Source: a virus. Taken from it: DNA of 33,769 bases. The DNA lies in IMG/VR virus record IMGVR_UViG_3300045988_180636; one strand, 5' to 3'. The translations under genes and the position numbers were made by a program. The number at the start of each line of letters is the position of its first letter. Position 1 is the first letter of the stretch. Positions 2,622-33,769 of this stretch are shown piece by piece. The notes under the pieces are model-generated. The model was not told the DNA's origin. It saw only the letters and a list, made by a program, of their open reading frames with translations, and did no database searches.

Positions 2622-2655
2622 TTGCACAAATACTAACGAAAGTGAGGAATTTAAC

Positions 2656-3492
2656 ATGAGCTTAGTTATTGGTTCAGTATATGCAGACGCAGTAAATAGT
2701 AAGCTGGGTACTGCTCTTAAAATGAAAGATATTGCCACAGATTATACAGATATGGTATCTGATATTCTTGTATATGGTAATGAGGTTCACTTCCCAACAT
2801 TTAATCGTCTTTCAGACGCAGAGGAAGTAACAAAGGGTACTGCTCTTGTACCAGAGGAAGTAGGTATGAGTGATAGCACTGCAAAGGTAAAGCAGACTGG
2901 TAAATCTGTTCGTATCTATGATAAGGATAAGGCACAGATCAAAGGTGCAGTTGTAGACGCTATGGCAAGCCAGACCGCAGAAGTTATGGCAAAGAAGATT
3001 GATTCTGACCTTATTTCAGAAATGGTAGATAATGCCGTTTATAAGACTGCATTACCAGGCGAACTTACAGTTACCGCTATTGATAGTGCATTTGATGTAT
3101 TCGGAGATCAGGTTCAGAACTCTAGCTTTTCTGGTATCGTGGCACACGGTAAGTTCAGAAGTGCAATTATGAGAATGGATGAATTTACAAAGATTGATAA
3201 GACATATGCTACTACTGGAAACGGCATTGTAGATGATAATAATTGCATTGGTTTCTGGAATGGTACAATCCCTGTATATCTTTCAGATCAGATGTGGGAC
3301 GCTACAAACAGTGAGCCGATTATGGCAGTTGTTAAGACAGGTGCTATCGGTTACATCATGCAGAAGGAAACTACTGTAGAGGAAGAGAGAGAAGCTAAGT
3401 TACTTGCAACAGACCTTGTAGCAAGCAACCTTTATGCAGTTAAACTCTTAGATACTAAGGGTGTATCTATCTTAAAGAAGACTATTGCCTAA
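2656..3492 (+). CDS. Major capsid protein (small HK97-fold type, N4-gp56-like family)
   Basis: 278 aa with strong RBS GAGGAA. It follows the scaffold gene. The sequence pattern (VYADAVNSKLG..., G.EVHFPTF, KSVRIYDKDKAQ) resembles the roughly 280-aa capsid proteins paired with DUF4355 scaffolds in Firmicutes phages. Confidence 0.7.
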   Translation: MSLVIGSVYADAVNSKLGTALKMKDIATDYTDMVSDILVYGNEVHFPTFNRLSDAEEVTKGTALVPEEVGMSDSTAKVKQTGKSVRIYDKDKAQIKGAVVDAMASQTAEVMAKKIDSDLISEMVDNAVYKTALPGELTVTAIDSAFDVFGDQVQNSSFSGIVAHGKFRSAIMRMDEFTKIDKTYATTGNGIVDDNNCIGFWNGTIPVYLSDQMWDATNSEPIMAVVKTGAIGYIMQKETTVEEEREAKLLATDLVASNLYAVKLLDTKGVSILKKTIA

Positions 3493-3629
3493 GAGCAAAT
3501 GGATAATCTCATAGACTTTCATAGTCTGTGATTTTTTCATATATCAGGGGTGTGATGTTGTATCACATGGTATGATGTTGCACCCCTACTCTTTAAGGCA
3601 ATTTTTATTTTAACGAAAGGACAGTATAA

Positions 3630-3983
3630 ATGCTAAGACCTAGTGATTTAAAAGAATATAGACTATTAAGAGGTCTGTCGCAGAGGGATGTTGCTATGTA
3701 CTGTGATATTACTTCACAGTTAATTGGAGACATTGAACTAGGACAGAGAAATCTTACAGAGTATAATTATCAGGAAATCGTGAAGGGTATCAATGCAGCG
3801 TCACAGGCGAAAGCCAGAGGAACATTTGAAGCTGATAAAAAGCGTCTTATGAAAACTGAAAACGATTATGAGAAAAATCGTCAGAAAGAAAAACGTGCAG
3901 CCGAAAAAGCAAAGACTACTACTACACGAAAGAAAACTACTACGAAACCAACCGCCAGTAAGAAGGTTTCAGATTCAAAATAA
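3630..3983 (+). CDS. XRE-family HTH protein with a K/T-rich basic tail
   Basis: LRGLSQRDVAMYCDITSQLIGDIELGQRN is an HTH_3-type motif. RBS GAAAGGA. Confidence 0.6.
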   Translation: MLRPSDLKEYRLLRGLSQRDVAMYCDITSQLIGDIELGQRNLTEYNYQEIVKGINAASQAKARGTFEADKKRLMKTENDYEKNRQKEKRAAEKAKTTTTRKKTTTKPTASKKVSDSK

Positions 3984-4020
3984 AGGGGGTTACAGTGTTT
4001 CGTATTAGAAAAAATTGTAA

Positions 4021-4869
4021 TTGTGGGTACTTACAAAGTACCGAAACACGATTACAACAATGTATAAATTTGATGAAAAAGAAAGTCATATCAAACAAGA
4101 TTTATTGAACAAATTTCCTGAATGGTATAAGGATTTGAATAAGGAAGATTACTATTTAGTTCTCACAGATGATTGTGATTCCTTATTCAGTTGCAAGAGA
4201 TTAAATACACTCTTCGGTTTAGAAATAGGCGGTTTTTATGATTTTAGAAGCGGTCTATGGTTGAATGAAGAGAAAACAGATTCAGGGTGGAAAACACCTA
4301 TCTTTGTTGACCTGTCGGTAGGTCAGGATAAATTATGTTTTGATAATCACAGAACATTTCTGAAGAACCCTAACAGGGTTAATCCGAACAATATTCCAAA
4401 AGCAAGATTTAATGAAAAATATAACTTCGGTACGATTACACTTGTGTCCGCTTTATATGGCGGTGTGGATCGTATGAATGAAGAGTTGAGAACAATGTTA
4501 CTTGCCGTTGATGGTGGCTTTATCGGTTACTACAACAAAGGCGGTAAATATTCTCATATCAATCTGTACTGGTTGGAGAAGTTAGGTCTGACAGAGTACC
4601 TTGTACCGATTCTTGAAAAGCACGATATGAAATACTTTCAGGATTTTTCGGTAGAGAATGGCTTGTATGACAAGATAACTATTACACCAGACGGATATTT
4701 AGACACACCGACTTATCGTGTACCAGAATATCAATTTGAATTGGTGCAACCGATACAGAAAGTCTTTGCGTCAAAGTATGAAGTGACGCAACGTATCAAA
4801 AGGAATGAAAAAATAATTGTAAGTGCAGAGACATACGAAAATGAGTATGTTTTGAATATCGCAGTATAG
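4021..4869 (+). CDS. Hypothetical protein (start uncertain: TTG 4021 or ATG 4060)
   Basis: Long ORF with protein-like composition and no motif I can name. An in-frame TAA at 4018 limits the N-terminus. Confidence 0.55.
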   Translation: MWVLTKYRNTITTMYKFDEKESHIKQDLLNKFPEWYKDLNKEDYYLVLTDDCDSLFSCKRLNTLFGLEIGGFYDFRSGLWLNEEKTDSGWKTPIFVDLSVGQDKLCFDNHRTFLKNPNRVNPNNIPKARFNEKYNFGTITLVSALYGGVDRMNEELRTMLLAVDGGFIGYYNKGGKYSHINLYWLEKLGLTEYLVPILEKHDMKYFQDFSVENGLYDKITITPDGYLDTPTYRVPEYQFELVQPIQKVFASKYEVTQRIKRNEKIIVSAETYENEYVLNIAV

Positions 4870-4906
4870 ATAGCGAAATTTATAGGATTAAAAGGAGAAT
4901 TTTATA

Positions 4907-5146
4907 ATGACAAGAGAAGAATATGTAATTTTCAGAGACGAAGTTTTAATGAAGAGATTTTACTGGTGTTATTCAATCGCAGAGAGAAAGTACCTCACAG
5001 AAAAAGGTTACAAGTACCTTTTCAGATGTACCCACTATAAGTCTGATAAATTCTTTTGGGTGTTCGATAAGACAGATGATCTTATGAATGATGTAAAAAT
5101 CTGGAAAGACGAACACAAAAAGAAAGTGAGTGAAGCGGTTGAGTGA
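4907..5146 (+). CDS. Hypothetical small protein
   Basis: 79 aa with RBS AAAGGAGAA 8 nt upstream. Confidence 0.6.
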   Translation: MTREEYVIFRDEVLMKRFYWCYSIAERKYLTEKGYKYLFRCTHYKSDKFFWVFDKTDDLMNDVKIWKDEHKKKVSEAVE

Positions 5147-5402
5147 TAATCTCACACAGAAAGAGATTCAGGATCGGTACGGTCATGGATTATCTGAAGA
5201 TAAGATAGTGTCATTATATCCCTACGAAAAGGGAGAATTAAATATAGAAGAGTATAGCGGTCAGGATTATATGACAACGTATGATCTGTTGACCGCCTAT
5301 GCCCTTCGGCAAAAGTACCCTGTCATGGTATGGGGGAAGATAAGAAAAAATCACAGAGCATTTGTGTTCAAAAAGAAGAAGCCTGTCATGTTGGCTTTTT
5401 GA
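5130..5402 (+). CDS. Hypothetical protein (GTG start, overlaps the preceding stop)
   Basis: 90-aa ORF with a weak RBS. Its position in the operon is consistent with coupling. Confidence 0.4.
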   Translation: MKRLSDNLTQKEIQDRYGHGLSEDKIVSLYPYEKGELNIEEYSGQDYMTTYDLLTAYALRQKYPVMVWGKIRKNHRAFVFKKKKPVMLAF

Positions 5403-5424
5403 TTTATTGAACAATATTAAGTGA

Positions 5425-5727
5425 ATGAAAGGACAGTTTCATAAGTTGGAAAATAATAAAAGAAATAATAGAGAAAGCAGACCTAGATTCATGGGTTATG
5501 TTACAAACTGGAATAGCGAAAGAGGTTACGGATTTATCCGTTGTTATGATGATGGAGAATCTTATTATTGTAGCCAGAAGGTTATCAATGGAGAACCATA
5601 TTTAAGAAAAGGAACTATTGTCAGTGTGATGATTGGACACGGCAAAGACAGAGAAGGAAATCCGTCAACTTATGTTGCAGATTTACTTGTAGTTGAAGTG
5701 CCAGAAGAAAGACACACACGATACTAA
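5425..5727 (+). CDS. Divergent cold-shock-domain (OB-fold) protein
   Basis: GYVTNWNSERGYGFIRC...YYCSQKVI...LRKGTIVSV matches the CSD pattern G.V.WFn.e.GyGFI...vFvH.s.i...L.eGq.V. Confidence 0.5.
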   Translation: MKGQFHKLENNKRNNRESRPRFMGYVTNWNSERGYGFIRCYDDGESYYCSQKVINGEPYLRKGTIVSVMIGHGKDREGNPSTYVADLLVVEVPEERHTRY

Positions 5728-5745
5728 GGAAAGGTGGTGGATAAT

Positions 5746-5850
5746 ATGAAAATGACACACGTTCATATGGCTTGTGGTGGTAGCAATACTAAATTAAGTA
5801 ATAATGAAGCATTGAATAAGCTTGTGCAGATTTTAGCAGCTAAAAAATAA
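5746..5850 (+). CDS. 34-aa peptide ORF directly upstream of the radical SAM gene (candidate precursor or substrate peptide)
   Basis: ATG 5746 is preceded by GGAAAGGTGGTGG. Translation is MKMTHVHMACGGSNTKLSNNEALNKLVQILAAKK. Too short for the supplied ORF track. It ends 23 nt before the radical SAM start. Confidence 0.45.
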   Translation: MKMTHVHMACGGSNTKLSNNEALNKLVQILAAKK

Positions 5851-5873
5851 TTGATTAAAAGGAGTAAAAATAT

Positions 5874-6974
5874 ATGAAAAGAATCACATGGGATTTTCTA
5901 TCAGTTGAGTTGACAAGAAAATGTCAATTAAATTGCAAACATTGTTTTAGGGGTAAGTCACAGAATCTTACCATTTCAAAAGAGACTATAGATAAATTTC
6001 TTAGTCAAACAGAAATTATCGGTTATCTTCACTTTACTGGTGGAGAGCCGACATTAGCAATAGAGGAAATGCGATACTTTTTAGATTGCTTATATAAGTA
6101 TCGCATACCTCTTTTTCATCTTCAGATCATCACAAATGGATATACTAAATCAGAAGAATTTGTACAGGTGGTAAAAGATTATTCAGATATGATTAGATTG
6201 TGTTATATGGACGCTGAAGTAGATATGAAATATTATGTCACAATCGGAGTATCAGTTGATAGATACCATGTAGGTTATGATCCTAAAGAAGCACTTGAAT
6301 ACTATAAGGAAGAGTTAGAAGGATATGCAAAAGTTATTCCTATGACAGATGGCAATATTCCATTTAAAACAGGAAACGGAACAACACTTCTTGAAGCTAT
6401 TCCAGAAATTGATAAACAGGAATTAGATACAAGAATTGAAATTTTATCTAAGGATTTTAAACCTATGTGTCCGCAATATAAAACATATAAACTTTTACAT
6501 GATGAACAGGTATATGTTGTATGCGAAATGAGTTTATCTGCTAAAGGTAATGTAACACTATATAGAATTTGTTCAAATAATGATTATAAATTTGAGGATT
6601 TAGCAAACCAGAATGTATGTAATGTATATGAAACAGATTCAATATACGATTCTATTATTGAATATAACAAGGGTAAAAAATCTTGTTTGGAGAAAATGAG
6701 AGAAGAAAAGATACGGACTAAAGAAAGAGAAAATGATTCAAAATATAAGGCAAAATTATTTAGAAGTATCTGGAATTATATAAAAGTTGTAGGAGATAAT
6801 GCAGCTACGGAAGATATAGTTACATTACTTGCGGATAAAAAGATTACTGATCCTGTAGAGGACGCAGATCAGAGATTGGACGGAAATCTTATACAGATTA
6901 GTGATATTGAACCTGAAAGCATTGTTGACATTATGAAAGATGTTGAAAATTTTGAATATGGAAAAGAGGAATAA
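5874..6974 (+). CDS. Radical SAM enzyme (paralog 1, 366 aa)
   Basis: Canonical CX3CX2C cluster motif in LTRKCQLNCKHCFRG, followed by the GGEP SAM-binding motif (HFTGGEPTL) and ITNG. RBS AAAGGAG. Confidence 0.8.
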   Translation: MKRITWDFLSVELTRKCQLNCKHCFRGKSQNLTISKETIDKFLSQTEIIGYLHFTGGEPTLAIEEMRYFLDCLYKYRIPLFHLQIITNGYTKSEEFVQVVKDYSDMIRLCYMDAEVDMKYYVTIGVSVDRYHVGYDPKEALEYYKEELEGYAKVIPMTDGNIPFKTGNGTTLLEAIPEIDKQELDTRIEILSKDFKPMCPQYKTYKLLHDEQVYVVCEMSLSAKGNVTLYRICSNNDYKFEDLANQNVCNVYETDSIYDSIIEYNKGKKSCLEKMREEKIRTKERENDSKYKAKLFRSIWNYIKVVGDNAATEDIVTLLADKKITDPVEDADQRLDGNLIQISDIEPESIVDIMKDVENFEYGKEE

Positions 6975-6975
6975 T

Positions 6976-7341
6976 ATGGAAAATTTAGATTTTAGAAAAC
7001 CTGATATGGATAATCTTATACAGAAAAGTTATAGTGATTTTTGCAAAGAAAGATATGAGAATCATGTTTCTTTGATGAATAGAGTACATAAAAAAGTAAA
7101 TGAAAGTATGGAAAATGTAAGGTCACGATTCCGTGTAGAAGTGATTGAGCGATATATGGAATGGTTAGAAGGATGGTTTACAAGTATAAATGAACAAGAA
7201 TCAGATATTGTACTTATGACATTCGGAGATACATTAAGAACTGCAAGAGACTATATGAATGGTAAAGGTGAGCTTGTAGAGAAAAATACGGAAATTTTAT
7301 CGAAGATGATTGAAGAAAAATCAAAGGAGTATGATTATTGA
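6976..7341 (+). CDS. Hypothetical helical protein in the radical SAM cassette
   Basis: Internal ATG 6976 with RBS AAGAGGA, 2 nt after the upstream stop. 121 aa, acidic and helical in composition. Confidence 0.55.
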   Translation: MENLDFRKPDMDNLIQKSYSDFCKERYENHVSLMNRVHKKVNESMENVRSRFRVEVIERYMEWLEGWFTSINEQESDIVLMTFGDTLRTARDYMNGKGELVEKNTEILSKMIEEKSKEYDY

Positions 7342-7865
7342 TGAAAGAGATATTTAATAAAAAAGATTTACAGTTTTTAGGAAAAGCATTTAAGAATCCT
7401 GAATTTGCAAAAGCGTTTATTGTATCAATGATGAAGGATGAAGATTATCAGGAACTAAAAGATTTATATACAAAACTTGATAAAAAGGATATTGAAATTG
7501 AAAATAATCTTAACAATATAATTCTTGCTTCAAAATTAGAAGAACCGGCTGTTACACCAGAAGAGAGAGTACGACAAAATTCTGAAAAGTTAGGTGTACT
7601 GTTTGGAGAATTGTTAGGAAAAATTATTACAGGAAAAAGTATGGGTACTTCATTAAAAGATTATGAAAATCGTGTACCTGTATTACTTCAGGAAAGAGCA
7701 GCTATTATAGATGAAATTAGTACATTATATGATAGTTACAAGGAAGCCTACAACAAAGAAATCAATAGTCAGGAAACAAGAGATATGTTGCTTATGGCTT
7801 TTGGTAAAAAAGATGGAGATATGGAAGGAGAACTTTTAGAATGGATAATGAGACTCCAAAAATAG
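7338..7865 (+). CDS. Hypothetical helical protein in the radical SAM cassette
   Basis: ATGA-type overlap with the preceding stop. 175 aa. Confidence 0.55.
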   Translation: MMKEIFNKKDLQFLGKAFKNPEFAKAFIVSMMKDEDYQELKDLYTKLDKKDIEIENNLNNIILASKLEEPAVTPEERVRQNSEKLGVLFGELLGKIITGKSMGTSLKDYENRVPVLLQERAAIIDEISTLYDSYKEAYNKEINSQETRDMLLMAFGKKDGDMEGELLEWIMRLQK

Positions 7866-8368
7866 CAATGACTTCTATTTATCTTGAAATCACAAGACAG
7901 TGCAACCTTCAGTGTAAGCACTGTCTCCGTGGTGATCCACAGAATATGAGTATGAGCAATAATCAGATAGATAGAATATTAGATAATTTTAATTGGATAG
8001 ACAAGGTTTTTATTGGTGGTGGCGAACCATTTCTTGCTAAAGATTCTATATCCCATTTGTTATCAGAATTAAAAAACAAAATTGAAAAAGGAAAATTTGT
8101 GTGTAGGTGTGTAGGACTTATTACAAACGGTACACAAAGAGACAAGGAAGTGATTACACTTCTAAATGAAATGGGAAAATATCTTAGTGATAAATGGTAT
8201 AAAGAAGATACAAAAACTATTAGCATAGGAATTTCAAAAGATGAATTTCACGATAACAATAGTGAAAATGCTATGGAATGGTTTAAATCTGAATGTGACG
8301 AAAGATATATTAGTTTACATTTTAATGAATTAGATATAGATAAAAGAACAAAAAAAACCAATAATTGA
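7841..8368 (+). CDS. Radical SAM enzyme paralog 2, N-terminal core only (ends just after an A8 tract)
   Basis: ITRQCNLQCKHCLRG (CX3CX2C), FIGGGEPFL and ITNG, collinear with the first 175 aa of 5874..6974. RBS GGAAGGAGAA. Confidence 0.75.
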   Translation: MDNETPKIAMTSIYLEITRQCNLQCKHCLRGDPQNMSMSNNQIDRILDNFNWIDKVFIGGGEPFLAKDSISHLLSELKNKIEKGKFVCRCVGLITNGTQRDKEVITLLNEMGKYLSDKWYKEDTKTISIGISKDEFHDNNSENAMEWFKSECDERYISLHFNELDIDKRTKKTNN

Positions 8369-8438
8369 AGAGTGCGAAAGAGCAATAAAAAATAACTTAC
8401 AGTATAGTAAAAGATATGGAATATCAGAACTTCATAGG

Positions 8439-8897
8439 GTGGAGTTATACAAAAATACTTTATTCAAGTTTAATAAAAATGATCCAAACGAAGAACCCAA
8501 AATTTTATATGATGGAGATTGTTTAGCTTTTACTTGTACAGATTTATTTCTAAAAGGTGGTTTCTATGGATATGCAGAAATTGACAAACCTGATTATCCT
8601 TTTATTCTTGGAAATTATATGAAAGAATCTGTGTTTGATATGATAATAAATTGGAATACATTACATCCACTTTTAGAACAACAGGCTATAATTTATGAAA
8701 ATTTAGTAAAACGTGGAATGACACAGAAGGATAAAGAAAAACATATAATAAGATTCCATGAAAAGGAAGATGAAGTGCGAAAACAATTATCAGAAAATAA
8801 GGACAACAGGGATGTATGGGATATTTACAAAGAAGTATTTCATTATGATTTTGCACCAGAAGAAATACAGGAAATAAAGAATTTTAGAAAGCAGTGA
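8439..8897 (+). CDS. C-terminal half of radical SAM paralog 2 (separate frame; this frame is open from 8340)
   Basis: KILYDGDCLAFTCTDLFLKGGFYGY and GNYMKESVFDMIINWN align with KLLHDEQVYVVCEMSLSAKGNVTLY and CNVYETDSIYDSIIEYN of paralog 1. The listed GTG start has no RBS. Confidence 0.6.
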   Translation: MELYKNTLFKFNKNDPNEEPKILYDGDCLAFTCTDLFLKGGFYGYAEIDKPDYPFILGNYMKESVFDMIINWNTLHPLLEQQAIIYENLVKRGMTQKDKEKHIIRFHEKEDEVRKQLSENKDNRDVWDIYKEVFHYDFAPEEIQEIKNFRKQ

Positions 8898-8901
8898 TAT
8901 T

Positions 8902-9390
8902 ATGGCAAAAACAAATAGAAAGCCTAATGGTAGTAGTGTCTCTTCGGAGACTTCTATATACCAGACTTTAAAAGGAATGATAAATACTGACACTAAGGTT
9001 TACTATGTGATGTGGAAGTTTTGTCCTGAATATCTGAAGGATAATGAAGCTGATCCGATATTGACATTTGAGGATTTGAAAAGCCGTTATGCAGTATTCA
9101 GTGATAAGATCACAGAGAAAACTTGTGAGAAGTATATGTTGGAGCAAGGTGTACAGGACGCTATCAAGTGGTTACTGAAACGCTTGCACCAGAAGAAACA
9201 AATTGAATTATATAATGCTTATTATCAGAAAGCGTTGTCAGGAGACGTACAGGCTTTCAAAGCATTTGAAGATTTTAGTGAGAAGTTCTTTGCAGCGAAT
9301 AAAGAAAACGGTCTTGTAAGTTTATTGAATAATGTATCTGAAGATGATTTAGAAGATAGTGAGGACTATTCCTATACCTATAAAGAGTGA
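8902..9390 (+). CDS. Putative small terminase subunit
   Basis: 162 aa, lying upstream of the large terminase. Basic N-terminus and a helical C-terminal region (YNAYYQKALSGDVQAFKAFEDF), as in Firmicutes-phage TerS proteins. The call rests on position and composition only. Confidence 0.4.
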   Translation: MAKTNRKPNGSSVSSETSIYQTLKGMINTDTKVYYVMWKFCPEYLKDNEADPILTFEDLKSRYAVFSDKITEKTCEKYMLEQGVQDAIKWLLKRLHQKKQIELYNAYYQKALSGDVQAFKAFEDFSEKFFAANKENGLVSLLNNVSEDDLEDSEDYSYTYKE

Positions 9391-9553
9391 TACAAGTAAA
9401 CCATTATACGAATATTTATATACCAAACATAAAAAATTCGGATTCACAGAAAAACAAGACTTGGAAATATTAAAAAAATTATATCCTGACGCACGGAATA
9501 TCAAAGTGATATACAGTGTCAGGGGAGAATCACATTTTGTAATAACAAATTGA
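9359..9553 (+). CDS. Hypothetical small protein (GTG start, overlaps the 8902..9390 end)
   Basis: 64-aa ORF with protein-like sequence and no clear RBS. Confidence 0.3.
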   Translation: MRTIPIPIKSDTSKPLYEYLYTKHKKFGFTEKQDLEILKKLYPDARNIKVIYSVRGESHFVITN

Positions 9554-9593
9554 GGTTGTATGAGTAAAATCATGCAGCCTTTTTTATTTTTTT
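9554..9593 (+). terminator. Strong intrinsic terminator just upstream of the large terminase gene
   Basis: 10-bp stem GGTTGTATGA / TCATGCAGCC (two G-U pairs) followed by TTTTTTATTTTTTT. Confidence 0.7.
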
Positions 9594-9607
9594 GAAAGGG
9601 GCAAAGC

Positions 9608-11170
9608 ATGACAAGAGAAGATAAGTTAAGAAAGATTGTCGCTGATCCTGTCCTGTGGTGTCGCTATTTTTGTAACATTGTAGATAAGACAGGTAAGAAA
9701 GTAAGATTTGAGCCGACCTACCACCAGAAGGTACTTGCTAAGAACTTCGGCAAATTTAATATCGTGGCTAAGTCAAGACAGCTTGGTATAACTTCATGGG
9801 CGATAGCGTACTCACTTTATCTTACCCACACACAACCAGATACCGTATGTATGTTAATGTCCTATTCACTGGACACGGTAGACATTGTATTTAAGAAATT
9901 GAAAGCTATGTATGATGATCTTGATCCGTCTGTCAAATTAGCTGATGTGGCGAACAACAGGAAAGAACTCATACTTGAAAATAGAAGTCGTATCGTTTGT
10001 TGTGTATGCGGTACAAAGGACGCTGCCAGAGGTTCAACCTTGCGGTACGTTCATTTAACAGAAGTAGCCTTCATGGATGATACTAAGCTGAAGAATCAGT
10101 TAGTTGCTATCGAAGCTGCATTGCGTCCTGATGGACAGATCGTACTTGAATCAACCTCAAATGGAATGAATTACTGGTTTGAGTTGTGGCAAAAGGCGGT
10201 TCATGGAGAGAGCCAGTATATACCTTTTTTCTTTTCATGGCTAGACGATAAGAGACAGTTCATTCAAGAATACGAACAGAATACAGAAATCTATTTCAAT
10301 CGACACGGTAAGTATCTGGAAGTGGAAGAGTTGGACGAAGAAGAATTATCCCTGTACTACAAAATGGGTGCAGAGAAAAACCCACTTGCTATGAAGAAAC
10401 TTATGTGGCGAAGAATGAAGATAGCAAATATCGGACTTGACAAATTTAGACAGGAATATCCAACAACGGCTACAGAATCATTCCTTGTATCAGGAAACAA
10501 TGTCTTTGATTTAGAGAAGATTCAAGCCAGAATGAACGGTCTTTATGATACAAAGCCACTATCACAGGTTGGAATGAAGTTACCGCCACTTATGAGAAAG
10601 TGGAGAAAAGATTGGTCTATGTGGAGACAACCGAAGCCGAACGAAAGATTTTACGGTGGAGTGGACACAGGAGAGGGAATTTCTTCAGATAACAGTGTCA
10701 TTCAGATTGTAGATAAGAACGGCATACAGTGCTTTGAATTTGCGTCCAACAAGATAAAGCCGTATGAATTTGCGGACTTGGTGCGTGAAGTCGGAGACTA
10801 TTACAATACCGCTTTATTGGTAGTAGAGAAGTTATCCGCAGGACACACGGTTGTAGATAAGCTATACGATAGCGGACATAGATACTTGCGTCTGTACAAA
10901 TATAAAGAGTATGACGCTAAAGGTAAGGCAAGGAAAAAGCCTGGATTCCAGACTTCATTAAAGAGCCGACCTATTATCATAAACCGATTTGTAGAAATGT
11001 TTGAAACTGGACAGATATTATTGAACAGTAAAGCACTATTAGATGAAATGAAATCATTCCAATTAGACGATAACGGAAAGCAACAGGCGGTACAGGGTGC
11101 AAAGGATGATAGGGTTATGGCTTTTGCTATGGCATTGGAAGGACTTGTCAACGGTGTGTGGTACATATAA
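9608..11170 (+). CDS. terL: Terminase large subunit
   Basis: 520 aa. Walker-A-like VAKSRQLGITSW, then an acidic Walker-B region. C-terminal RNaseH-like nuclease signatures (YGGVDTGEG..., GAKDDRVMAFAMA). Located next to the portal gene. Confidence 0.8.
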   Translation: MTREDKLRKIVADPVLWCRYFCNIVDKTGKKVRFEPTYHQKVLAKNFGKFNIVAKSRQLGITSWAIAYSLYLTHTQPDTVCMLMSYSLDTVDIVFKKLKAMYDDLDPSVKLADVANNRKELILENRSRIVCCVCGTKDAARGSTLRYVHLTEVAFMDDTKLKNQLVAIEAALRPDGQIVLESTSNGMNYWFELWQKAVHGESQYIPFFFSWLDDKRQFIQEYEQNTEIYFNRHGKYLEVEELDEEELSLYYKMGAEKNPLAMKKLMWRRMKIANIGLDKFRQEYPTTATESFLVSGNNVFDLEKIQARMNGLYDTKPLSQVGMKLPPLMRKWRKDWSMWRQPKPNERFYGGVDTGEGISSDNSVIQIVDKNGIQCFEFASNKIKPYEFADLVREVGDYYNTALLVVEKLSAGHTVVDKLYDSGHRYLRLYKYKEYDAKGKARKKPGFQTSLKSRPIIINRFVEMFETGQILLNSKALLDEMKSFQLDDNGKQQAVQGAKDDRVMAFAMALEGLVNGVWYI

Positions 11171-11209
11171 TGAACACTATTAAATAAACAGGATATGAAA
11201 GGAACTCAC

Positions 11210-11458
11210 ATGGAGTATGCAGAGTATAAAAAGATACTTGATAAAGGCTTGATTGATTATGTGAATAGTGGCGGTAGCACCTTTTATATGGGAAGTGCTA
11301 CGAAAGAGTATGTGTTTTCCTATGAGAATGAGCAAGACGCTGCCGACCACAAGAAACATTTATCTGATAAAGCCGTACAAGCTATCTTGAAAAAAGAGAC
11401 ATTACCGAAAGGTATTAGATTAGAAAAGTGCATATTGCACGGAAAGGATTGTAAATGA
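11210..11458 (+). CDS. Hypothetical small protein between terminase and portal
   Basis: ATG 11210 with RBS GAAAGGAA (alternative ATG at 11195). Its stop overlaps the portal ATG (ATGA). Confidence 0.5.
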   Translation: MEYAEYKKILDKGLIDYVNSGGSTFYMGSATKEYVFSYENEQDAADHKKHLSDKAVQAILKKETLPKGIRLEKCILHGKDCK

Positions 11459-12876
11459 AAAATCCTATAGAAGCGATTAAGAATTTTTTCGGAAAGGGAA
11501 CAAGCATGAATACAGAAAAAACGAACTGGTTCAAGGATGAAATCGGCAAGACACGATATAAGGATCGTATCAGTAGAGTAACCGATATTGACGATTATTT
11601 ACGAAGAGAACATAAAGTTTTACAGATTCCATCGTTTGAATTTAAGGAACACACATTTGAGCCTACAAGATTGGTATTGCAGACGCTTAAATCTATTATC
11701 AAATTTCATTCAAGCTATGTGTGTGGTAGTCCTGTAAGTATTACAGGCGATAAGGAATTTGTATCTTTATTGAACAACATTTATAAGAAAGGTGGGTACA
11801 CGAAAACCGACCTTGAAATTGCAAAAGACCTGATTACATATGGAGATACATTCGAGTATGTATATCTGGACGAAAATAATAATATCAGGTCAAAGATTAT
11901 CCGTAACAAGGATTCATACCCATTGTATGATTCTTTCGGAAACTACACCCACTTTGTAGAGTATTGGAAGGATGAAGATACAAGAAAAGATCATTACATT
12001 GTATATTATCCTGATAAGGTAGAAATCTATGAGGGCAGTAAGTTAGTAGATACAAAAGTAAATCTTACTGGTTTACCTATCTGGTACAGTGCTATGGATA
12101 AATCAAAATATGATAAGTTCGGTGATCCATTCCCATTAGATTTAATTGGTATCATGGACACAATCGAAGCATTGTTATCAAAACTTGATACAGCCGTTAC
12201 AACACTGTCATTATCCCCTCTTGGTGTAGTGTCAGGTCAGAGAATGGATTCGGCTATTCCTACTAATATTGTGGGTACTGTAATGAATCTGGAAGATGGA
12301 GCAACCTTTAACTGGGCGAACGCTCAAATGGACAGAGAGAGTATTAAACTGGAATTAGATTATGTAATTCAACAGTTTTATGCAATCGCCTGTGTTCCAG
12401 CTTCGATTATGGGGCAGTCGAATGTAGCCAATGTGTCAGAGACTTCTATTACAATGCTTTACCAACAGTGTGATAACTTTGCACGTCAGTATATCGCAAG
12501 CATGAAAGAAGGATTTGAACAGAGACTTGCATATATTAGAAAGCTGATGGAGTACAATCATCAAACTGTATCTGATGAAGTATTCGACAGTATCAACTTC
12601 TCATTCAATGTGGCAAGACCTGTAGATAATGCAGCCGATATGGAAAATATGCAGATTCAGTATAATTGCGGTGCTATCAGTAAACAGACTATCATTGACA
12701 GAAGCCCATATACAACAGATACGGCACTGGAATTAAAGCGTATTGAAGATGAGGCGAACGGTACAACCGATAATCCGACAGAAGTACCAACAGATAATCC
12801 GACAGAGGATGATCCACAGGAAGTTGTGACAAGTACCAAAACTGAAGAAACTGTTTTAGATGATAAGGTTGATTAG
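11455..12876 (+). CDS. Portal protein (SPP1 gp6-like size and organisation)
   Basis: 473 aa immediately after the terminase. Acidic, T/P-rich C-terminal tail. General similarity to Firmicutes siphophage and podophage portals, judged by eye. Confidence 0.7.
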   Translation: MKNPIEAIKNFFGKGTSMNTEKTNWFKDEIGKTRYKDRISRVTDIDDYLRREHKVLQIPSFEFKEHTFEPTRLVLQTLKSIIKFHSSYVCGSPVSITGDKEFVSLLNNIYKKGGYTKTDLEIAKDLITYGDTFEYVYLDENNNIRSKIIRNKDSYPLYDSFGNYTHFVEYWKDEDTRKDHYIVYYPDKVEIYEGSKLVDTKVNLTGLPIWYSAMDKSKYDKFGDPFPLDLIGIMDTIEALLSKLDTAVTTLSLSPLGVVSGQRMDSAIPTNIVGTVMNLEDGATFNWANAQMDRESIKLELDYVIQQFYAIACVPASIMGQSNVANVSETSITMLYQQCDNFARQYIASMKEGFEQRLAYIRKLMEYNHQTVSDEVFDSINFSFNVARPVDNAADMENMQIQYNCGAISKQTIIDRSPYTTDTALELKRIEDEANGTTDNPTEVPTDNPTEDDPQEVVTSTKTEETVLDDKVD

Positions 12877-13621: not shown

Positions 13622-13627
13622 CAAGTT

Positions 13628-27524: not shown

Positions 27525-27553
27525 TTGACAAGTATATCCTTATATGTTACGAT
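27525..27553 (+). promoter_or_regulatory. Promoter (TTGACA-17-TACGAT) of the helicase operon, followed by a roughly 340-nt leader
   Basis: Exact -35 and spacing. The 10-mer GATACAGAGT at 27551-27560 is shared with the array promoter (13989-13998). Confidence 0.5.
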
Positions 27554-28077: not shown

Positions 28078-29670
28078 TTGACTAAAGGCAACAAACAATG
28101 GGTGTCAGAACTAATATCTGACGATTATACGAAGTGGAGCAACAGGATTATATTACTTGCGTGTGGAACTGGAAGAGGAAAGACCACATTTGCACTTGGA
28201 ATATATTGTAAGTACCTGTTATCCGTTGGAAAAAAGGTGTTGTACATTTGCAATCGTACAAAGCTGAAAGAGCAGATCAGAGCCGATAAAGAGAGATACG
28301 GCATTGACGGTGTAGAAATCACTTCATATCAAAAGTTCGCTGAAGATTTAAGGTCAGGAAGTGAACCACAGTATGATGTATATATCTGTGATGAAGCACA
28401 TTATTTCTTAGCAGACGCAGGATTTAATTTATATACGGATATTCCGTATGAGTACATTATGAATCAAACGGCTGCAACCAGAGTGTTTATGACCGCTACA
28501 TATAAGAATATCTTCGGACGTATCAGGAAAGACTTGGAACGTACAGGAGAAGAACCATTAGAGTATCATCTACCTACTGATTATTCCTATGTAGAAAACA
28601 TTTACTGGTTCAAAAAGAAAGATGATTTATTCGGCATAGTCGATAGAATATTGAACACCACTAATGATACAGTTATATACTTTTGCAATAGCATTAAGAA
28701 AATGAGAGAGTTTTACAATCATTATTCGCCCAACCGTGGCAAAGGCTATTCAGAAGATAAGAAATTTCTCAAAGATTCTAAGCTGCAATACATGAGTTTC
28801 ATGTGTAGTGGCAACAGTAGTGAAGATGAAAAAGAGACAAGCGGTTTCGTTGCTAACTACTGTTCTTCAGATCATATCAAAAGAAATTCCCATAATGACG
28901 GTTATTACATTGACAACAGAATATTGATTACAACGAAAGTTATTGACAATGGAGTAGATTTTAAAGACAGGAAGATAAAACACATTATATGTGATGTATT
29001 CGACATTGAAAGTGCTATCCAATGTTTAGGAAGAAAACGTGTCATAGATGAAAAAGATACTTGTAACTTTTATCTAAGAGACTGGCAGTATTATGAACTG
29101 AATCTATTCTTGAAGCCTGTAAAAGAGAATCTTAAACCACCTACCATGTTGATTGAGGACAAGGAAGAATGGATTAAGAAGTACGGAACTAACAGGAACT
29201 ATAAAGACGGTACAACCTACTTCGATTTTAATAACAATCAGTGGAGAATAAATTATTTAAGATACGATAAGTTGTTATCCGACAAAGCAACGATTGAATC
29301 CATGATAAAGCAAGAGACAAGCTACAGGGAAGAGATACTATCCCACATAGGCGAATATGAGAATTGCATTGAAATGGAAGATATAAAAGCGGATCAAGTA
29401 AAGGACGCTATAGAAATCTGGATAACAGAACATATGGAACAGTATTTATCGAACGAACAAAAACAAGAACTCATATCATTATGTGACTTGAAAGATAAAT
29501 ACGGTAGACAACAGAAGTCAATCGGTATCTTGTCAAATTACCTGAAAGACAACTACAGATTTACCATTACCAATAAGCAACACAGAGTAGATAAAAAACG
29601 TGTGAAACAATGGGTAATTAGTCCATATGATGATTCAGATTGTCAGAAAATGGCAAGACCACCTTGTTAA
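28078..29670 (+). CDS. Superfamily-2 DEAH-box helicase
   Basis: Walker A ACGTGRGKTT, motif II ICDEAHYF, motif V-like TTKVIDNGVDF, motif VI QCLGRKRV. TTG start with RBS AAGGGGGTG 9 nt upstream. Confidence 0.75.
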   Translation: MTKGNKQWVSELISDDYTKWSNRIILLACGTGRGKTTFALGIYCKYLLSVGKKVLYICNRTKLKEQIRADKERYGIDGVEITSYQKFAEDLRSGSEPQYDVYICDEAHYFLADAGFNLYTDIPYEYIMNQTAATRVFMTATYKNIFGRIRKDLERTGEEPLEYHLPTDYSYVENIYWFKKKDDLFGIVDRILNTTNDTVIYFCNSIKKMREFYNHYSPNRGKGYSEDKKFLKDSKLQYMSFMCSGNSSEDEKETSGFVANYCSSDHIKRNSHNDGYYIDNRILITTKVIDNGVDFKDRKIKHIICDVFDIESAIQCLGRKRVIDEKDTCNFYLRDWQYYELNLFLKPVKENLKPPTMLIEDKEEWIKKYGTNRNYKDGTTYFDFNNNQWRINYLRYDKLLSDKATIESMIKQETSYREEILSHIGEYENCIEMEDIKADQVKDAIEIWITEHMEQYLSNEQKQELISLCDLKDKYGRQQKSIGILSNYLKDNYRFTITNKQHRVDKKRVKQWVISPYDDSDCQKMARPPC

Positions 29671-29939: not shown

Positions 29940-31064
29940 GTGATAAAGAAAGGAAAGAAATTTTTGAGAGATAATATAGTTGAATTAAGAGCGTCCTTGA
30001 AGGATTTACCAATAGATGAAATAAGAGAAAAGCTAGGAGATTTGAAAAAGTCAGAACTTATGAGAAGTATCATCCTGAATGAAAAACAGTATTGCACCTG
30101 TACTTATGAGAGGTCACAGAGAAACTTTTGGTATTCAGTAGTGAAGCCGACACTAGATAAGTTAGGAAAACTCACGGCTGATGATGATACAGAAGAAGGT
30201 CTGACAGGATGGGATAAGACATTATCGAAGTATCTTACCGAACTGGTAAAAGAAGGAAAACTCACATATAAGGACATTATGATTTGTGACGAAAGCAGAA
30301 ATTATAGTGTACCCGATAGGTATAGCTTTAGTCCGTACAGAAATATCATTGTAGCCTGTGAGAAAGATACCATATTTCAGTTTGTCAGAGATATATCACT
30401 ACTCTTAGGGTGTAGCTGCATATCATCAAAAGGGATTTGCGGTTTTGGGGCAATGGAAACATTATTGAGAAAAATCAGAGACAATTCGGAGAATACTATA
30501 AGTGAGTTGGTGTTCCTGATTATGAGTGACTACGATCCGACAGGATATACCATAGCGAACACATTCACGGCACAAGCTGAAATCATGGCGAAACAATTAG
30601 GAATGAATGTAAAAATCATTTCTAAGAGAATCGGTATCACACCAGATCAGTTGTCAGAGGATGAAGTGAAGAATAATATGTACACTCCGAAGAAAAAAGG
30701 TCTTGATACTTGGATGAAAGAGACAGGCGGTATAAATGGACTTGAAAAAGGTTTAGAGTTGGACGCACTCACACCTGAAAGAATCAGAGAGATATTCGCT
30801 GACGAACTTCAGAACTATATCGACAATGGTTCATATATCGAAGATTGTAAGAGTAGTTACCTGTGGAGTGCAATCAGGAATGAAGTTGATAAGTATATTG
30901 ATACAATCGTTAGTCAGGTGTACAGGGAGTTGGAAGATAAAGTAAGTACGAAAGAACCTGACATGATGAAATATGTTCGTGAGGGCAGAACCAATATACC
31001 ATTCAATAATCTGTGTTCCATAAATGCGGATGTTGAAAATTGTGTAAAGAAATATTTTGAATAA
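29940..31064 (+). CDS. Spo11 / topoisomerase VI-A-like protein (5Y-CAP-like motif plus Toprim), 'Mini-A'-like
   Basis: Toprim signature: VACEKDTIF (Glu), then SKGICGFGAMETLL, then LIMSDYDPTGYTIAN (D.DP.G). Upstream, QRNFWY resembles the R-x-x-aromatic-Y catalytic tyrosine motif. The start is uncertain (GTG 29940). Confidence 0.5.
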   Translation: MIKKGKKFLRDNIVELRASLKDLPIDEIREKLGDLKKSELMRSIILNEKQYCTCTYERSQRNFWYSVVKPTLDKLGKLTADDDTEEGLTGWDKTLSKYLTELVKEGKLTYKDIMICDESRNYSVPDRYSFSPYRNIIVACEKDTIFQFVRDISLLLGCSCISSKGICGFGAMETLLRKIRDNSENTISELVFLIMSDYDPTGYTIANTFTAQAEIMAKQLGMNVKIISKRIGITPDQLSEDEVKNNMYTPKKKGLDTWMKETGGINGLEKGLELDALTPERIREIFADELQNYIDNGSYIEDCKSSYLWSAIRNEVDKYIDTIVSQVYRELEDKVSTKEPDMMKYVREGRTNIPFNNLCSINADVENCVKKYFE

Positions 31065-31083: not shown

Positions 31084-33769
31084 ATGAATAATTTGATAGA
31101 GAACGATATTTTAATTAGAAACATGGACGCTTCATACCTTTACTGGAAAATAAAGGATGATGGAGCAATAGCAGAATATGAGAATAAAAAGAAAGAGTTG
31201 TCCAGTACGGACAATCAGGAAGTACAAGACAGAGTGCAAGAATTATCTAAGCAGATATTCAGTTTTGGAACTGATATTAAGTTACCAGAGAAGGACAACA
31301 GATATTTGTACTCTGGAACGCTCACAGATAGCCTTATGACACGCAAACTTAGACAGGTGGTAAATAATAAGGATGGAGCAATAAGAAGCGTTAAAACGGA
31401 TTCTACAGCGTCAGGAACGGATTACACCGATATTATTATCAATCTGAAATTCAAGTCTGATGTGATGATCCAGACGGACGAACAGAAGCAAGCATACAAT
31501 CAGGATACAGGGGAAATTGAAAAACTGGACGCTAAGAAGAGTAAGAGACTTATCAGTAAGAAGAAATTGCGTCAGATGGCATACAGAGACGGTGTTACAA
31601 TAAATGGTGTTCATTATGTCAATTTCCAGAGAACAAGTTCTAAGGCAAGAACAGGTAATGACCTTTTCATAGATAAAGATTATTTTGAAGCTATGGAAGA
31701 GTGGCAGACTATGGGAATACCATTCAGAGAGATTTTCAGGGAAGATGATAAGGTGGACATTGTATCTACCAGAAGTTATGAAGCCTTGACCTCATCATCC
31801 ATTATCGGAACACTTGACATTGATCCGTATTCAATCCTACTGATAGATGAAGCTGACGGAACATATACAATGCCTTGCAACGTAGTAACACTGAATGAAG
31901 AGACAAAAAGGTTACAAGTTTCAAAACAGGATTATGAGAAGCATATCGACCTGTGGGATGGACAGAGCCTTGCGGATGAATCAATCTTTAATACTGGAAA
32001 ATACTTCAATCGCAAGGACGGTAAGGAACACACCTATGAGGGAAAAGGATTCTTGCTTTTGAGAAATCACTTCTTTAAGAGTGCGATATTCAATACTAAG
32101 CTACAGGAATATTACAGTGAGAAGTTCAAGGGTGTAGATAATCCAGTAGTAAAAGATAAATACGGAGAGACATTCAATCCACAGGATATTAAATTGGTTA
32201 CTACAAAGAACAGTGTTAAGATATTGAAGTTTGCGGATATTATCGCTACATACATGGTTGCGGATGATGAAAAAGAAAAGCTGAAGGAACTTGAATCTGA
32301 AAGACAGAAGTTCATTAACGAATGTTCCAAAATTAGAAACAGGGTGTCTACTGCAAAGAGAAAACTTACAATTCTTACTAAGGACACGAACGCTACTGTA
32401 GATGATATTCAGGTGGCACAAAATGAACTTGACCTTGCACTTGCGGATCAGAGCCGACTTCCTGAAATCGAAGCAGAGATTAAAAAGCATGACAAGCCGA
32501 TAAAATTTGAACAGGAAAAATTGACCTGGCGTTGGTACAGGGAACAGTTAAAGAAGAATCAGGATAAATTCGGTGTATGTAAGTATGAGAAGGTATCTAA
32601 ATTCGGAGAGCGTCAACAGTTATGGTATCAGGTGTTAGGTAGCTTGAATCTGAACGAGGAACAGTTGTGGCAGATTGTAGAACCACAGGTGCATGAGATA
32701 AATCTTTTGAAGAAATATCCAGCTTTTTTGAAACACTCACTGAATACAAAAGCTGCCGACACAGATAATATCGGAGCAAGGATGATGAAAGAATTATTAC
32801 AGGTCAATGAAGATATTACTAAGACTTCATGGTACACGAATTACAGAAGGTCATTTATCAGTAGTATTCTTGATCGCCTGTATGAAGGTAAGGTGCAGTT
32901 AAACAATTCAGACTTTTGTACATTGGTTGCTAATCCTTTTGAAATGCTTAGAGCGTCCACAGGAGAAAGAATTGATACAAGTATCTTATCCGACTTCCAG
33001 TGTTATTGTAGCCGATATGCAGATGGAGAAGAACTGTATGGCTTTAGAAGTCCGCATATAGCAATCGGAGAGAACGCTATCCTGACAAATACAGACCGTA
33101 AGGAATGGAAGTGGTTCAACTTCACTGATAGAATCTTAGTCATAAATCTGTTTGGTAAAGGTGCTTTCCTGTCGGATATATGGCAGGGTTGCGATACAGA
33201 TTCGGACGTAGCCTATATCGGTAATGATCCTGTGGTCTTAGAAGCTACAAAGTCAACGGTAAATTCTGGTAAATATCTTATTCCTATCAATGGGTTATCC
33301 CCTGAAAACGATCCAAAAAACTATACAGATGAAGAAATGGCAACGATTGACGGTAAGTTAGCAAATGACTTTATCGGAAAGATTTGTAACCTTGCAAGAG
33401 ATTTACAGTGTTTCTACTGGCACTTGTACAATACAGGTACAGAAGAGAACAAAAAGAAATATCTGCCACAGATTTATGATGATATTTGTATTTTGGCGGT
33501 TGCGTCAAATATCGCTATCGACAGTGCTAAGAGAAGATACAAAGGTGTAAACCTTGCAACAGAAATCAGTGAGATAAGAAAGCGTCCGTATCTACAGGCT
33601 GAAGGTGTGGTGCTTCGTGATGATGGAACTTTACTCATTACAGAGAAGAGATATAAGAAAACATTATCAGAAGAAAGCGTCCGCAAGTATCAGGATTATG
33701 TGCAGCGTAGGAACAATGCCACTACACAGAAAGAGATAGAAGAGTGTACGACAGAAATCGACAAAATTC
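31084..33769 (+). CDS. Single-subunit two-barrel RNA polymerase (YonO / cellular RdRP-like), N-terminal 895 codons; continues at 1..933
   Basis: No stop from ATG 31084 to the window end. The translation YGFRSPHIAIGENAIL-(about 30 aa)-INLFGKGAFLSDIWQGCDTDSDVAYIGND matches the RdRP/YonO pattern R.P....G(D/E)...G.D.D.D (DxDxD at 33193-33207). The upstream WDGQSLADESIF ... FLLLRNHFFKSAIF resembles the DG.G / R..G.KG barrel motifs. Confidence 0.6.
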   Translation, partial: MNNLIENDILIRNMDASYLYWKIKDDGAIAEYENKKKELSSTDNQEVQDRVQELSKQIFSFGTDIKLPEKDNRYLYSGTLTDSLMTRKLRQVVNNKDGAIRSVKTDSTASGTDYTDIIINLKFKSDVMIQTDEQKQAYNQDTGEIEKLDAKKSKRLISKKKLRQMAYRDGVTINGVHYVNFQRTSSKARTGNDLFIDKDYFEAMEEWQTMGIPFREIFREDDKVDIVSTRSYEALTSSSIIGTLDIDPYSILLIDEADGTYTMPCNVVTLNEETKRLQVSKQDYEKHIDLWDGQSLADESIFNTGKYFNRKDGKEHTYEGKGFLLLRNHFFKSAIFNTKLQEYYSEKFKGVDNPVVKDKYGETFNPQDIKLVTTKNSVKILKFADIIATYMVADDEKEKLKELESERQKFINECSKIRNRVSTAKRKLTILTKDTNATVDDIQVAQNELDLALADQSRLPEIEAEIKKHDKPIKFEQEKLTWRWYREQLKKNQDKFGVCKYEKVSKFGERQQLWYQVLGSLNLNEEQLWQIVEPQVHEINLLKKYPAFLKHSLNTKAADTDNIGARMMKELLQVNEDITKTSWYTNYRRSFISSILDRLYEGKVQLNNSDFCTLVANPFEMLRASTGERIDTSILSDFQCYCSRYADGEELYGFRSPHIAIGENAILTNTDRKEWKWFNFTDRILVINLFGKGAFLSDIWQGCDTDSDVAYIGNDPVVLEATKSTVNSGKYLIPINGLSPENDPKNYTDEEMATIDGKLANDFIGKICNLARDLQCFYWHLYNTGTEENKKKYLPQIYDDICILAVASNIAIDSAKRRYKGVNLATEISEIRKRPYLQAEGVVLRDDGTLLITEKRYKKTLSEESVRKYQDYVQRRNNATTQKEIEECTTEIDKI
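33715..33769. repeat. 55-nt terminal duplication of positions 1-55 (circular assembly overlap)
   Basis: AATGCCACTACACAGAAAGAGATAGAAGAGTGTACGACAGAAATCGACAAAATTC is present at both ends. Confidence 0.95.

Follow-up and report, generated by a model that had tools for sequence, protein, structure and literature searches.

No relatives of cellular RNA polymerase (RNAP) are known to be simpler than the YonO-type polymerases, of which, to our knowledge, only YonO of the Bacillus prophage SPbeta has been studied. The subject here is a predicted homolog of YonO encoded across the two ends of the IMG/VR virus record IMGVR_UViG_3300045988_180636, a stretch of 33,769 nucleotides (nt) that is referred to in its entirety as the window. 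From the letters of this sequence alone, a preliminary description had proposed that the window encodes a single-subunit RNAP of the YonO/eukaryotic RNA-dependent RNA polymerase (RdRP) two-barrel type. The computational follow-up leaves little doubt that the product, a protein of 1187 amino acids (aa), is a two-barrel polymerase of the YonO/RdRP branch and favors, with lower confidence, a role as the DNA-dependent RNAP for the head and packaging (late) genes of the same element.

YonO is a processive DNA-dependent RNAP that transcribes the late operon of SPbeta from a start upstream of yonK (PMC5467207). Changing its aspartate triad to Asn (3D>3N) abolishes RNA synthesis (PMC5467207). The 2017 study of YonO (Forrest et al. 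2017, PMC5467207) did not determine its promoter or any specificity factor, and a literature search found no later study. Descriptions of single-chain polymerases like YonO, from Firmicute phages, prophages, and mobile elements, go back to 2003–2010 (PMC2919709, PMC7824862). The invariant residues of two-barrel RNAPs comprise three Asp residues and an R-x-P motif in the Rpb1-like barrel, whereas the Rpb2-like barrel has a single Asp and a pair of basic residues; in QDE-1, the single Asp is D709 and the triad is 1007-DYDGD-1011 (PMC2919709). The virion RNAP of crAss-like phages and the multi-subunit β/β′ enzymes belong to the same two-barrel superfamily and share the DxDxD triad, and YonO and the RdRPs are set apart from the β-type barrels, which bear an SBHM "flap" insert (PMC7824862).

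A continuous reading frame across the ends of the window

The window starts and ends with the same 55 nt, which leaves 33,714 unique base pairs (bp) in the form of a circle or of a terminally redundant molecule. A reading frame is open from an ATG at position 31084 to the window end, with the nearest upstream in-frame stop at 31045. Once the overlap is removed, the frame resumes at nt 56, in phase with the open reading frame (ORF) 58..933, and closes with a TAA codon at 931–933. The uninterrupted frame of 1187 aa put forward in the preliminary description, from 31084 through the junction to 933, is thereby confirmed. Its account of why the gene had been missed is also correct, in that the ORF listing leaves out frames that run off an end and holds only the 291-aa tail at 58..933. 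The peptides that it quoted are present as well, with YGFRSPHIAIGENAILTN at residues 652–669, GKGAFLSDIWQGCDTDSDVAYIGNDP at residues 691–716, WDGQSL at residues 291–296, and LRNHFFKS at residues 326–333. The distance of "about 30 residues" that it gave between the first two of these is loose but fair (R655 and D704 lie 49 residues apart, the quoted peptides 22). The parts of the gene are as follows.

31084..33769, + strand: 5′ part of the RNAP coding sequence, residues 1–895 plus one base of codon 896
33715–33769: assembly overlap, a duplicate of window positions 1–55
56..933, + strand: 3′ part of the RNAP coding sequence, from the remainder of codon 896 to residue 1187
31064–31072, + strand: ribosome-binding site AAGGAAGGA, 11 nt 5′ of the RNAP ATG, as read from the sequence

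The upstream gene, which encodes a 374-aa protein, stops at 31062–31064, and the RNAP gene starts 19 nt later. This position of the upstream stop suggests that the RNAP gene is part of the same transcription unit. The 1187-codon frame is, on the strength of its homologs, a real gene rather than a chance frame, because 265 homologs were found by a word-indexed search and 834 cluster representatives by an exhaustive HMMER search.

Profile and fold comparisons with known two-barrel polymerases

The profile and Foldseek comparisons that had been suggested with the preliminary description were both carried out, the profile comparison with reference to the 839-aa YonO encoded at 61356–63875 of SPbeta (NC_001884). 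In hhalign, a profile of 43 close homologs of the window protein matches YonO with an E-value of 2.8e-5, and a profile of 40 diverse representatives (24–56% identity) matches it with a probability of 99.5% and an E-value of 4.6e-23 over 432 columns that include both catalytic blocks. The alignment extends over residues 162–738 of the window protein and residues 125–566 of YonO, and pairs WDGQS with TDGCG, LRNHFFKS with VRLPWVKG, RSPH with RSPH, and DTDSD with DNDGD. A tblastn search with YonO finds relatives that are ~50% identical to the window protein, aligned over YonO residues 323–563 at ~23% identity over ~260 residues. In addition, the Pfam family PF05183 (RdRP) is matched by 6 of the 40 diverse relatives (best E-value of 1.1e-15), a link that reaches the window protein only transitively.

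The predicted structures give a similar picture. A full-length AlphaFold model has a pLDDT of 74, and its top six Protein Data Bank (PDB) matches in Foldseek are all RDR2 (E-values of 1e-7 to 1e-4). A model of the core (residues 140–860), made with a broader alignment, has a pLDDT of 84.9 and a pTM of 0.82; the means of its 10-residue blocks are 85–97 from approximately residue 630 (core residue 491) through the triad and then 70. This core model gives 15 significant PDB matches, all of which are QDE-1 or RDR2 (E-values of 2e-9 to 2e-6). The QDE-1 and RDR2 matches have a probability of 1.00, 690–800 aligned columns, a query TM of 0.44–0.49, and 8–11% identity. With both models, bacterial β′ is reached at E-values of 0.13–0.17 and TM values of 0.06–0.12, which are not significant, and the 50 PDB matches listed for either Foldseek search include no structure of PolD or of the crAss-like virion RNAP phi14:2 gp66.

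QDE-1 (Neurospora and Thielavia) and RDR2 (Arabidopsis and maize) are the only significant structural neighbors in the PDB, and they share with the window protein the barrel order, the DxDxD motif, and the single upstream Asp. In contrast to these enzymes, the window protein is bacterial or viral, has no RNA interference (RNAi) partners, would be expected to use a DNA template, and lies below the detection of Pfam PF05183. Taken with the residue conservation described below, the profile and fold results support the assignment of the protein to the YonO/eukaryotic-RdRP two-barrel (double-psi β-barrel) type. Of the two outcomes that the preliminary description had named as refuting it, the lack of such a fold in profile and structure searches and a DxDxD motif that varies among homologs, neither was observed. 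The naming of crAss-like phages among the carriers of this type is not upheld. The crAss-like virion RNAPs form a different branch of the superfamily, and a tblastn search of a phage collection returned three unannotated faecal contigs alone (26–30% identity).

A negligible probability is given to the explanation that a protein other than a polymerase has these motifs by chance or that the gene is not real. The window protein does lack a direct sequence match in Pfam or the PDB, as this explanation would have it, but the YonO profile match, the residue conservation, the Foldseek matches, and the synteny all oppose it and refute it.

Domain organization and conservation of the catalytic residues

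As in YonO, both barrels are found in a single chain, with a β-like block (residues 160–388) before a β′-like block (residues 480–840). The blocks, the motifs that they contain, and the segment that separates them are located as follows.

31561..32247, + strand: first conserved block, β-like barrel, residues 160–388; aligns with YonO 125–325 and is found in 99% of representatives
31954..31971, + strand: WDGQSL, residues 291–296, with D292 and G293 invariant
32062..32079, + strand: RNHFFK, residues 327–332, with R327 and K332 invariant
32275..32508, + strand: coiled-coil insertion, residues 398–475, between the two blocks
32521..33603, + strand: second conserved block, helical region and β′-like barrel, residues 480–840; aligns with YonO 323–566 and onward
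33046..33057, + strand: R-S-P-H, residues 655–658, at the position of Rpb1 R446/P448 (PMC2919709)
33193..33207, + strand: D-T-D-S-D, the Mg-binding aspartate triad, residues 704–708

Residue conservation was read from a MAFFT alignment of 145 sequences, in which the window protein and YonO are joined by 143 representatives no shorter than 600 aa. Wherever the column is occupied, residues D292, G293, R327, K332, K379, R655, P657, D704, D706, and D708 are invariant. Each Asp of the triad is present in 144 of the 145 sequences (the remaining one has a gap), and both R655 and P657 are present in all 145. The aligned residues of YonO are D249, R266, K271, K316, R492, P494, and D535/D537/D539. The DxDxD motif, whose conservation among homologs the preliminary description had left to be checked, is thus invariant in the family and aligns with the triad of YonO. 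The same holds for the upstream WDGQSL...LRNHFFKS segment, which had been likened to a barrel motif: D292/G293, R327, and K332 are invariant, and the segment aligns with D249, R266, and K271 of YonO. The invariant residues match the set published for two-barrel RNAPs (PMC2919709). From its place in the alignment, D292 is proposed to be the fourth catalytic carboxylate, at the position of Rpb2 D837 and QDE-1 D709, with the equivalence to QDE-1 drawn through YonO. Similarly, the pair of basic residues expected in the β-like barrel (Rpb2 K979/K987) may be R327 and K332, and K379 is also invariant.

Outside of these blocks, the window protein and YonO differ. The window protein is 1187 aa long and YonO 839 aa, and the N-terminal 150 and C-terminal 330 residues of the window protein, both long regions, are poorly conserved (10–14% mean identity to the window residue). 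Between the blocks, the window protein has a rare insertion of ~80 residues that sets it apart in the family. In the AlphaFold models, this coiled-coil insertion lies within a long helical hairpin (helices 398–433, 439–456, and 459–491). YonO lacks residues 398–475, as do 97% of the 144 aligned sequences. Finally, no counterpart of the Cys-rich C-terminus of YonO was noticed in the window protein on visual comparison.

Homologs and database annotations

Many of the 265 homologs from the word-indexed search are 1170–1230 aa long and are encoded on contigs of 33–34 kb, the size of this circle; a second search of this kind, made with the diverse 40-sequence alignment, returned mostly the same subfamily. 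The exhaustive HMMER search covered 1.84 billion cluster representatives (clusters at 50% identity) and found 834 at E ≤ 1e-3, of which 459 reach E ≤ 1e-30. Most of these representatives are 800–1100 aa long and have the two conserved blocks at ~150–388 and 480–840. The family has a median length of 929 aa, compared with ~1180 aa for the clade of the window protein. Relatives come from Eubacterium, Lachnospiraceae, and Mediterraneibacter sources, and, judged by these searches, the family is large and common in gut Firmicute elements. Strains with a related element include Mediterraneibacter glycyrrhizinilyticus An427 (contig JACJLR010000022.1) and Clostridium perfringens CPM 77b. The only PHROGs match of the window protein is phrog_8308 (E-value of 1.6e-80), which has no assigned function.

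In the databases, proteins of this kind already have a name. A protein in the nr database that is 90% identical and is found on 33.6-kb contigs is entered as "MAG TPA: RNA dependent RNA polymerase [Caudoviricetes sp.]", and another that is 48% identical as "MAG: RNA dependent RNA polymerase [Bacteriophage sp.]". Among the viral protein models of BFVD, the top two matches are uncultured-phage proteins with the same name (A0A8S5SZT9, with an E-value of 2e-95 and 45% identity, and a second with an E-value of 7e-15). These proteins belong to the same family and length class as the window protein, with no difference of substance. They were probably named by automated transfer. The window protein is therefore a further case of an already known enzyme type, of which near-identical nr proteins bear the polymerase name.

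Taken at face value, the database label describes an RdRP that would copy transcripts of the element or the host into double-stranded or antisense RNA, either as a means of regulation or in a conflict with the host or with a helper phage. The closest solved structures are indeed the RNAi-pathway RdRPs QDE-1 and RDR2, relatives match the Pfam RdRP family, close relatives carry the label in both nr and BFVD, and a perfect minus-strand σ70-consensus promoter at 1134–1105 could yield antisense RNA near the 3′ end of the gene. However, the label itself was probably carried over automatically from the closest family that has a solved structure or a Pfam entry, and YonO, which represents this branch in bacterial viruses, is a DNA-dependent RNAP of late genes (PMC5467207). 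QDE-1 also takes DNA templates (PMC9508822), and the element has no partner genes of a bacterial RNAi-like pathway. An RdRP is for these reasons considered very unlikely, and "RNA dependent RNA polymerase" is probably a misnomer for a DNA-dependent transcriptase.

Operon organization and proposed role in late transcription

The polymerase gene is the last in a string of co-oriented genes that is preceded by a σA-like promoter and closed by an intrinsic terminator.

27525..27553, + strand: σA-like promoter TTGACA-17-TACGAT with TG (extended −10), ahead of the DUF5659/helicase/374-aa/RNAP string
28078..29670, + strand: SF2 helicase (ResIII/DEAD/Helicase_C), co-oriented with and upstream of the RNAP gene
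29940..31064, + strand: 374-aa protein, a match to phrog_6247, which is labelled "DNA topoisomerase" (E-value of 3.8e-11)
951..977, + strand: intrinsic terminator with a 12-bp stem (6 GC pairs) followed by GTTTTAT, 18 nt past the RNAP stop
1204..1392, + strand: 62-aa ORF, the first gene after the RNAP terminator, with an XRE-like helix-turn-helix (HTH) recognized by eye

The promoter at 27525–27553 is a candidate host-RNAP promoter for the polymerase gene within an operon whose structure is predicted, and the terminator at 951–977, a strong one, closes the helicase–RNAP operon, of which the RNAP gene is the last. The 374-aa protein has no Pfam match and no PDB sequence match. Its position is kept in relatives, where the corresponding proteins are 366 and 372 aa long, and it could be a replication protein or an accessory factor of the polymerase; a relationship to YonV was considered and rejected, as the two are unrelated. 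The 62-aa ORF likewise has no Pfam match. It is kept directly after the RNAP gene in relatives down to 29% RNAP identity, and its HTH-like sequence makes it a candidate regulator or specificity factor of the late module. Two perfect σ70-consensus promoters (TTGACA, a 17–18-nt spacer, and TATAAT, with TG) are found on the minus strand at 1134–1105 and 27743–27715. Transcription from the first would run antisense, toward the 3′ end of the RNAP gene and its terminator, and the second is divergent from the promoter of the helicase–RNAP operon; they may give antisense or switch transcripts.

Past the terminator and the 62-aa ORF lies the head and packaging module, the proposed target of the polymerase, with the following extent and principal genes.

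1863..12876, + strand: head and packaging module, co-oriented; its assignment as polymerase target is putative
1863–2564, + strand: scaffold
2656–3492, + strand: major capsid protein
9608–11170, + strand: large terminase (TerL)
11455–12876, + strand: portal

This arrangement is widely conserved. In every case examined, structural and packaging genes lie directly downstream of the RNAP gene and in its orientation. Relatives with 53%, 36%, and 29% RNAP identity keep the order of helicase, small ORFs, polymerase, and 62-aa ORF; the closer of these add a protein of ~370 aa before the polymerase, and scaffold and capsid genes come next where the contig is long enough. The helicase adjoins the RNAP gene in almost all relatives examined, upstream of it in most. 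In the relative with 51% identity (P0098; L002–L004), a ResIII helicase is instead immediately downstream, and the 62-aa ORF, scaffold, and capsid then follow. In a Psychrobacillus chromosomal prophage, with ~30% identity, the order is helicase, polymerase, invertase, terminase, and portal. In the Clostridium perfringens plasmid pCPCPM77b_3 (27.7% identity), the genes downstream of the polymerase, reached across the record junction, are those for recombinase, terminase, portal, capsid, and tail proteins. In SPbeta, yonO is upstream of the yonK-to-yonB late operon, which includes the yonK..yonF terminase and yonE portal genes.

YonO and the window protein thus agree in the order of the two barrels within a single chain, in the catalytic residues, and in a gene position upstream of, and in line with, terminase, portal, and structural genes, whereas the SPbeta genome is 134 kb and the element 33.7 kb. 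A kinship of the whole element with SPbeta was also considered and rejected (0 of the other 35 window ORFs tested resemble SPbeta genes in its first 100 kb). Two Pfam domains that take their names from SPbeta genes, YonV_C and YomX_C, occur in proteins of relatives L002–L006, with ~50% RNAP identity.

Because the layout in which the gene stands at the end of a helicase operon and upstream of head and packaging genes is common to relatives down to 28% identity and to SPbeta, the protein is probably the DNA-dependent RNAP for the late genes of the element, which is viewed as a phage-like plasmid of gut Firmicutes. In line with this role, a strong terminator follows the gene, and no strong σA-consensus promoter was found within 1204–13408. 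By analogy with YonO, the host σA RNAP would transcribe the helicase operon, with the polymerase gene last, from the promoter near 27525–27553 to the terminator at 951–977. The active site would lie between the two barrels of the single chain, with D704, D706, D708, and D292 holding the metal ions and R327, K332, K379, and R655 contacting the substrate. The enzyme, predicted to be DNA dependent and to use a promoter of its own as YonO would, may then transcribe the head and packaging module, starting after its own terminator.

Several observations weigh against this assignment. The window protein has 0 Pfam matches even at E ≤ 10, and phmmer and HMM-profile searches of PDB sequences returned noise only (coiled-coil or designed-repeat proteins); since sequence-only HMMs do not reach solved structures, hhalign to YonO and Foldseek were required. 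The full-length model is poor at the active site (pLDDT < 50 at residues 639–670 and 689–707), and the trimmed model alone is confident there. The structural neighbor QDE-1 is reported to use both DNA and RNA templates (PMC9508822). On the DNA side, a conserved TGGTATA(T/A)A, a σA-like extended −10 element, is found 5′ of the 62-aa ORF at the head of the late string, which suggests that the host polymerase might read the late module unaided. A k-mer search found no motif common to the late-gene intergenic regions, and in five relatives the stretch that precedes the scaffold gene could not be aligned in an informative way. Finally, the operon of the RNAP gene also encodes a helicase and a putative DNA-processing protein, a combination that would fit a role in replication as well.

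Such a role would consist of making an RNA primer or an R-loop at the origin of the element, together with the SF2 helicase and the 374-aa phrog_6247 protein. The string of helicase, 374-aa protein, and RNAP is kept in relatives, and no primase, Rep, or DNA polymerase gene was detected among ORFs of at least 60 aa searched with Pfam and/or PHROGs (several ORFs below ~110 aa were left unscanned). Two-barrel enzymes also include the replicative DNA polymerase PolD (PMC7708050, PMC4996933). On the other hand, the sole characterized relative, YonO, is a processive late-gene transcriptase, PolD structures are missing from the listed Foldseek matches, a C. perfringens plasmid has both an RNAP homolog and its own DnaD-type replication gene, and small elements commonly use host replication proteins. 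A replication role is accordingly regarded as quite unlikely.

Repeat arrays and the ORF-free region

Downstream of the portal gene, positions 13409–15822 form a 2.4-kb region without a + strand ORF of at least 60 aa. Stop-codon recoding was rejected as an explanation of this region (no long frame appears when any single stop is read through), and no Rfam match or tRNA gene was found in the window, this region included. Two consensus σA-like promoters on the + strand, at 13593 and 13983, are directed into it. The motif TTATCCCC occurs 13 times in the window compared with 0.9 expected, always on the + strand. Ten of these same-strand copies are found at 14079–15289, within 1.2 kb of ORF-free DNA, with a near-copy at 13714 and an irregular spacing of 54–227 nt. 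Possible identities of the region are an origin or iteron field, a non-coding RNA, and an array of protein-binding sites.

These features bear on the possibility that the protein is a true RNAP with a different target, either the whole element or the ORF-free region at 13409–15822, with the TTATCCCC copies as promoters or as pause/termination sites. The enrichment, single orientation, and clustering of the motif would agree with this, as would the lack of Rfam or tRNA matches and of recoded ORFs that would otherwise explain the region, and the YonO transcript in SPbeta also starts with an unannotated non-coding RNA (PMC5467207). However, the σA-like promoters at 13593 and 13983 already point into the region. 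The motif is only 8 nt long, has unconserved flanks, and is missing from the late-gene upstream regions, and the feature that is conserved among relatives is the synteny of the RNAP gene followed by late genes. A target other than the head and packaging module is therefore judged unlikely.

A second repeat, TATAAAAAGTAATAC, noted at 19266–24020, has 16 matches compared with 1.2 expected and contains the inverted repeat GTAATA/TATTAC. Its copies cluster upstream of a gene for a 535-aa HTH protein, on both sides of parA, after a 99-aa ORF (22442–22741), and before 24036; they look like partition centromere or operator sites. The preliminary description had combined the polymerase with partition genes and a promoter-like repeat array. 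Of these, the partition gene is confirmed, but no link was found between either repeat family and promoters of the polymerase.

Gene content of the element

The remaining genes that could be assigned are listed below.

5874–6974 and 7841–8368, + strand: two radical-SAM genes, between the capsid and terminase genes
15823–16605, − strand: serine recombinase
17209–17721: ArdA
21579–22355: ParA

Further genes encode two cold-shock-domain proteins and the 535-aa protein, whose HTH is C-terminal. The radical-SAM genes are unusual cargo for a head module; two relatives (L005 and L017) have larger radical-SAM genes and one glycosyltransferase in the same place. In some relatives with ~50% RNAP identity, a TubZ-type tubulin is found where the window has ParA. 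With the same searches and ORF sizes as given above for replication genes, no gene for tail proteins, lysis, a DNA polymerase, a primase, or Rep was recognized, and the unassigned coding capacity is small (~2,300 aa in ORFs of at least 130 aa).

The combination of head genes with ParA, a serine recombinase, and ArdA, and without recognizable tail, lysis, or replication genes, resembles a satellite more than a complete phage. That the circle is a tail-less, capsid-forming, plasmid-like satellite is nevertheless a tentative suggestion and a doubtful one. The nearest elements for comparison are 36–37-kb plasmids of C. perfringens (NZ_CP075911.1 and NZ_CP120752.1) and 197-kb plasmids of C. botulinum, whose homologs are 27.7–30.6% identical to the window protein over residues 166–1026. 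Like the window, the C. perfringens element is plasmid-like and phage-like, with a partition gene, a recombinase, and an RNAP gene upstream of terminase and portal genes. In contrast to the window, in which none of these is recognizable, it has a full tail module (Dit, tail spike, baseplate, and, where a tape-measure gene would stand, a 679-aa ORF annotated as hypothetical) as well as DnaD and ParM. The C. perfringens homolog is labelled "hypothetical protein" in RefSeq.

Implications for the YonO family

One practical gain is the correction of the "RdRP" label; homologs from cultured strains are still "hypothetical" in RefSeq. If the element were a satellite, a YonO-type polymerase would make the transcription of its head genes independent of the host sigma factor and of a helper phage, and the coiled-coil insertion and the 62-aa HTH protein might serve as a specificity module. 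It would also be the first satellite-type element known to have its own RNAP. The 33.7-kb circle, which brings together a single polymerase, one clear candidate for its target operon, and an adjacent, conserved small HTH protein, may offer a compact system in which to study promoter recognition by YonO-type polymerases.

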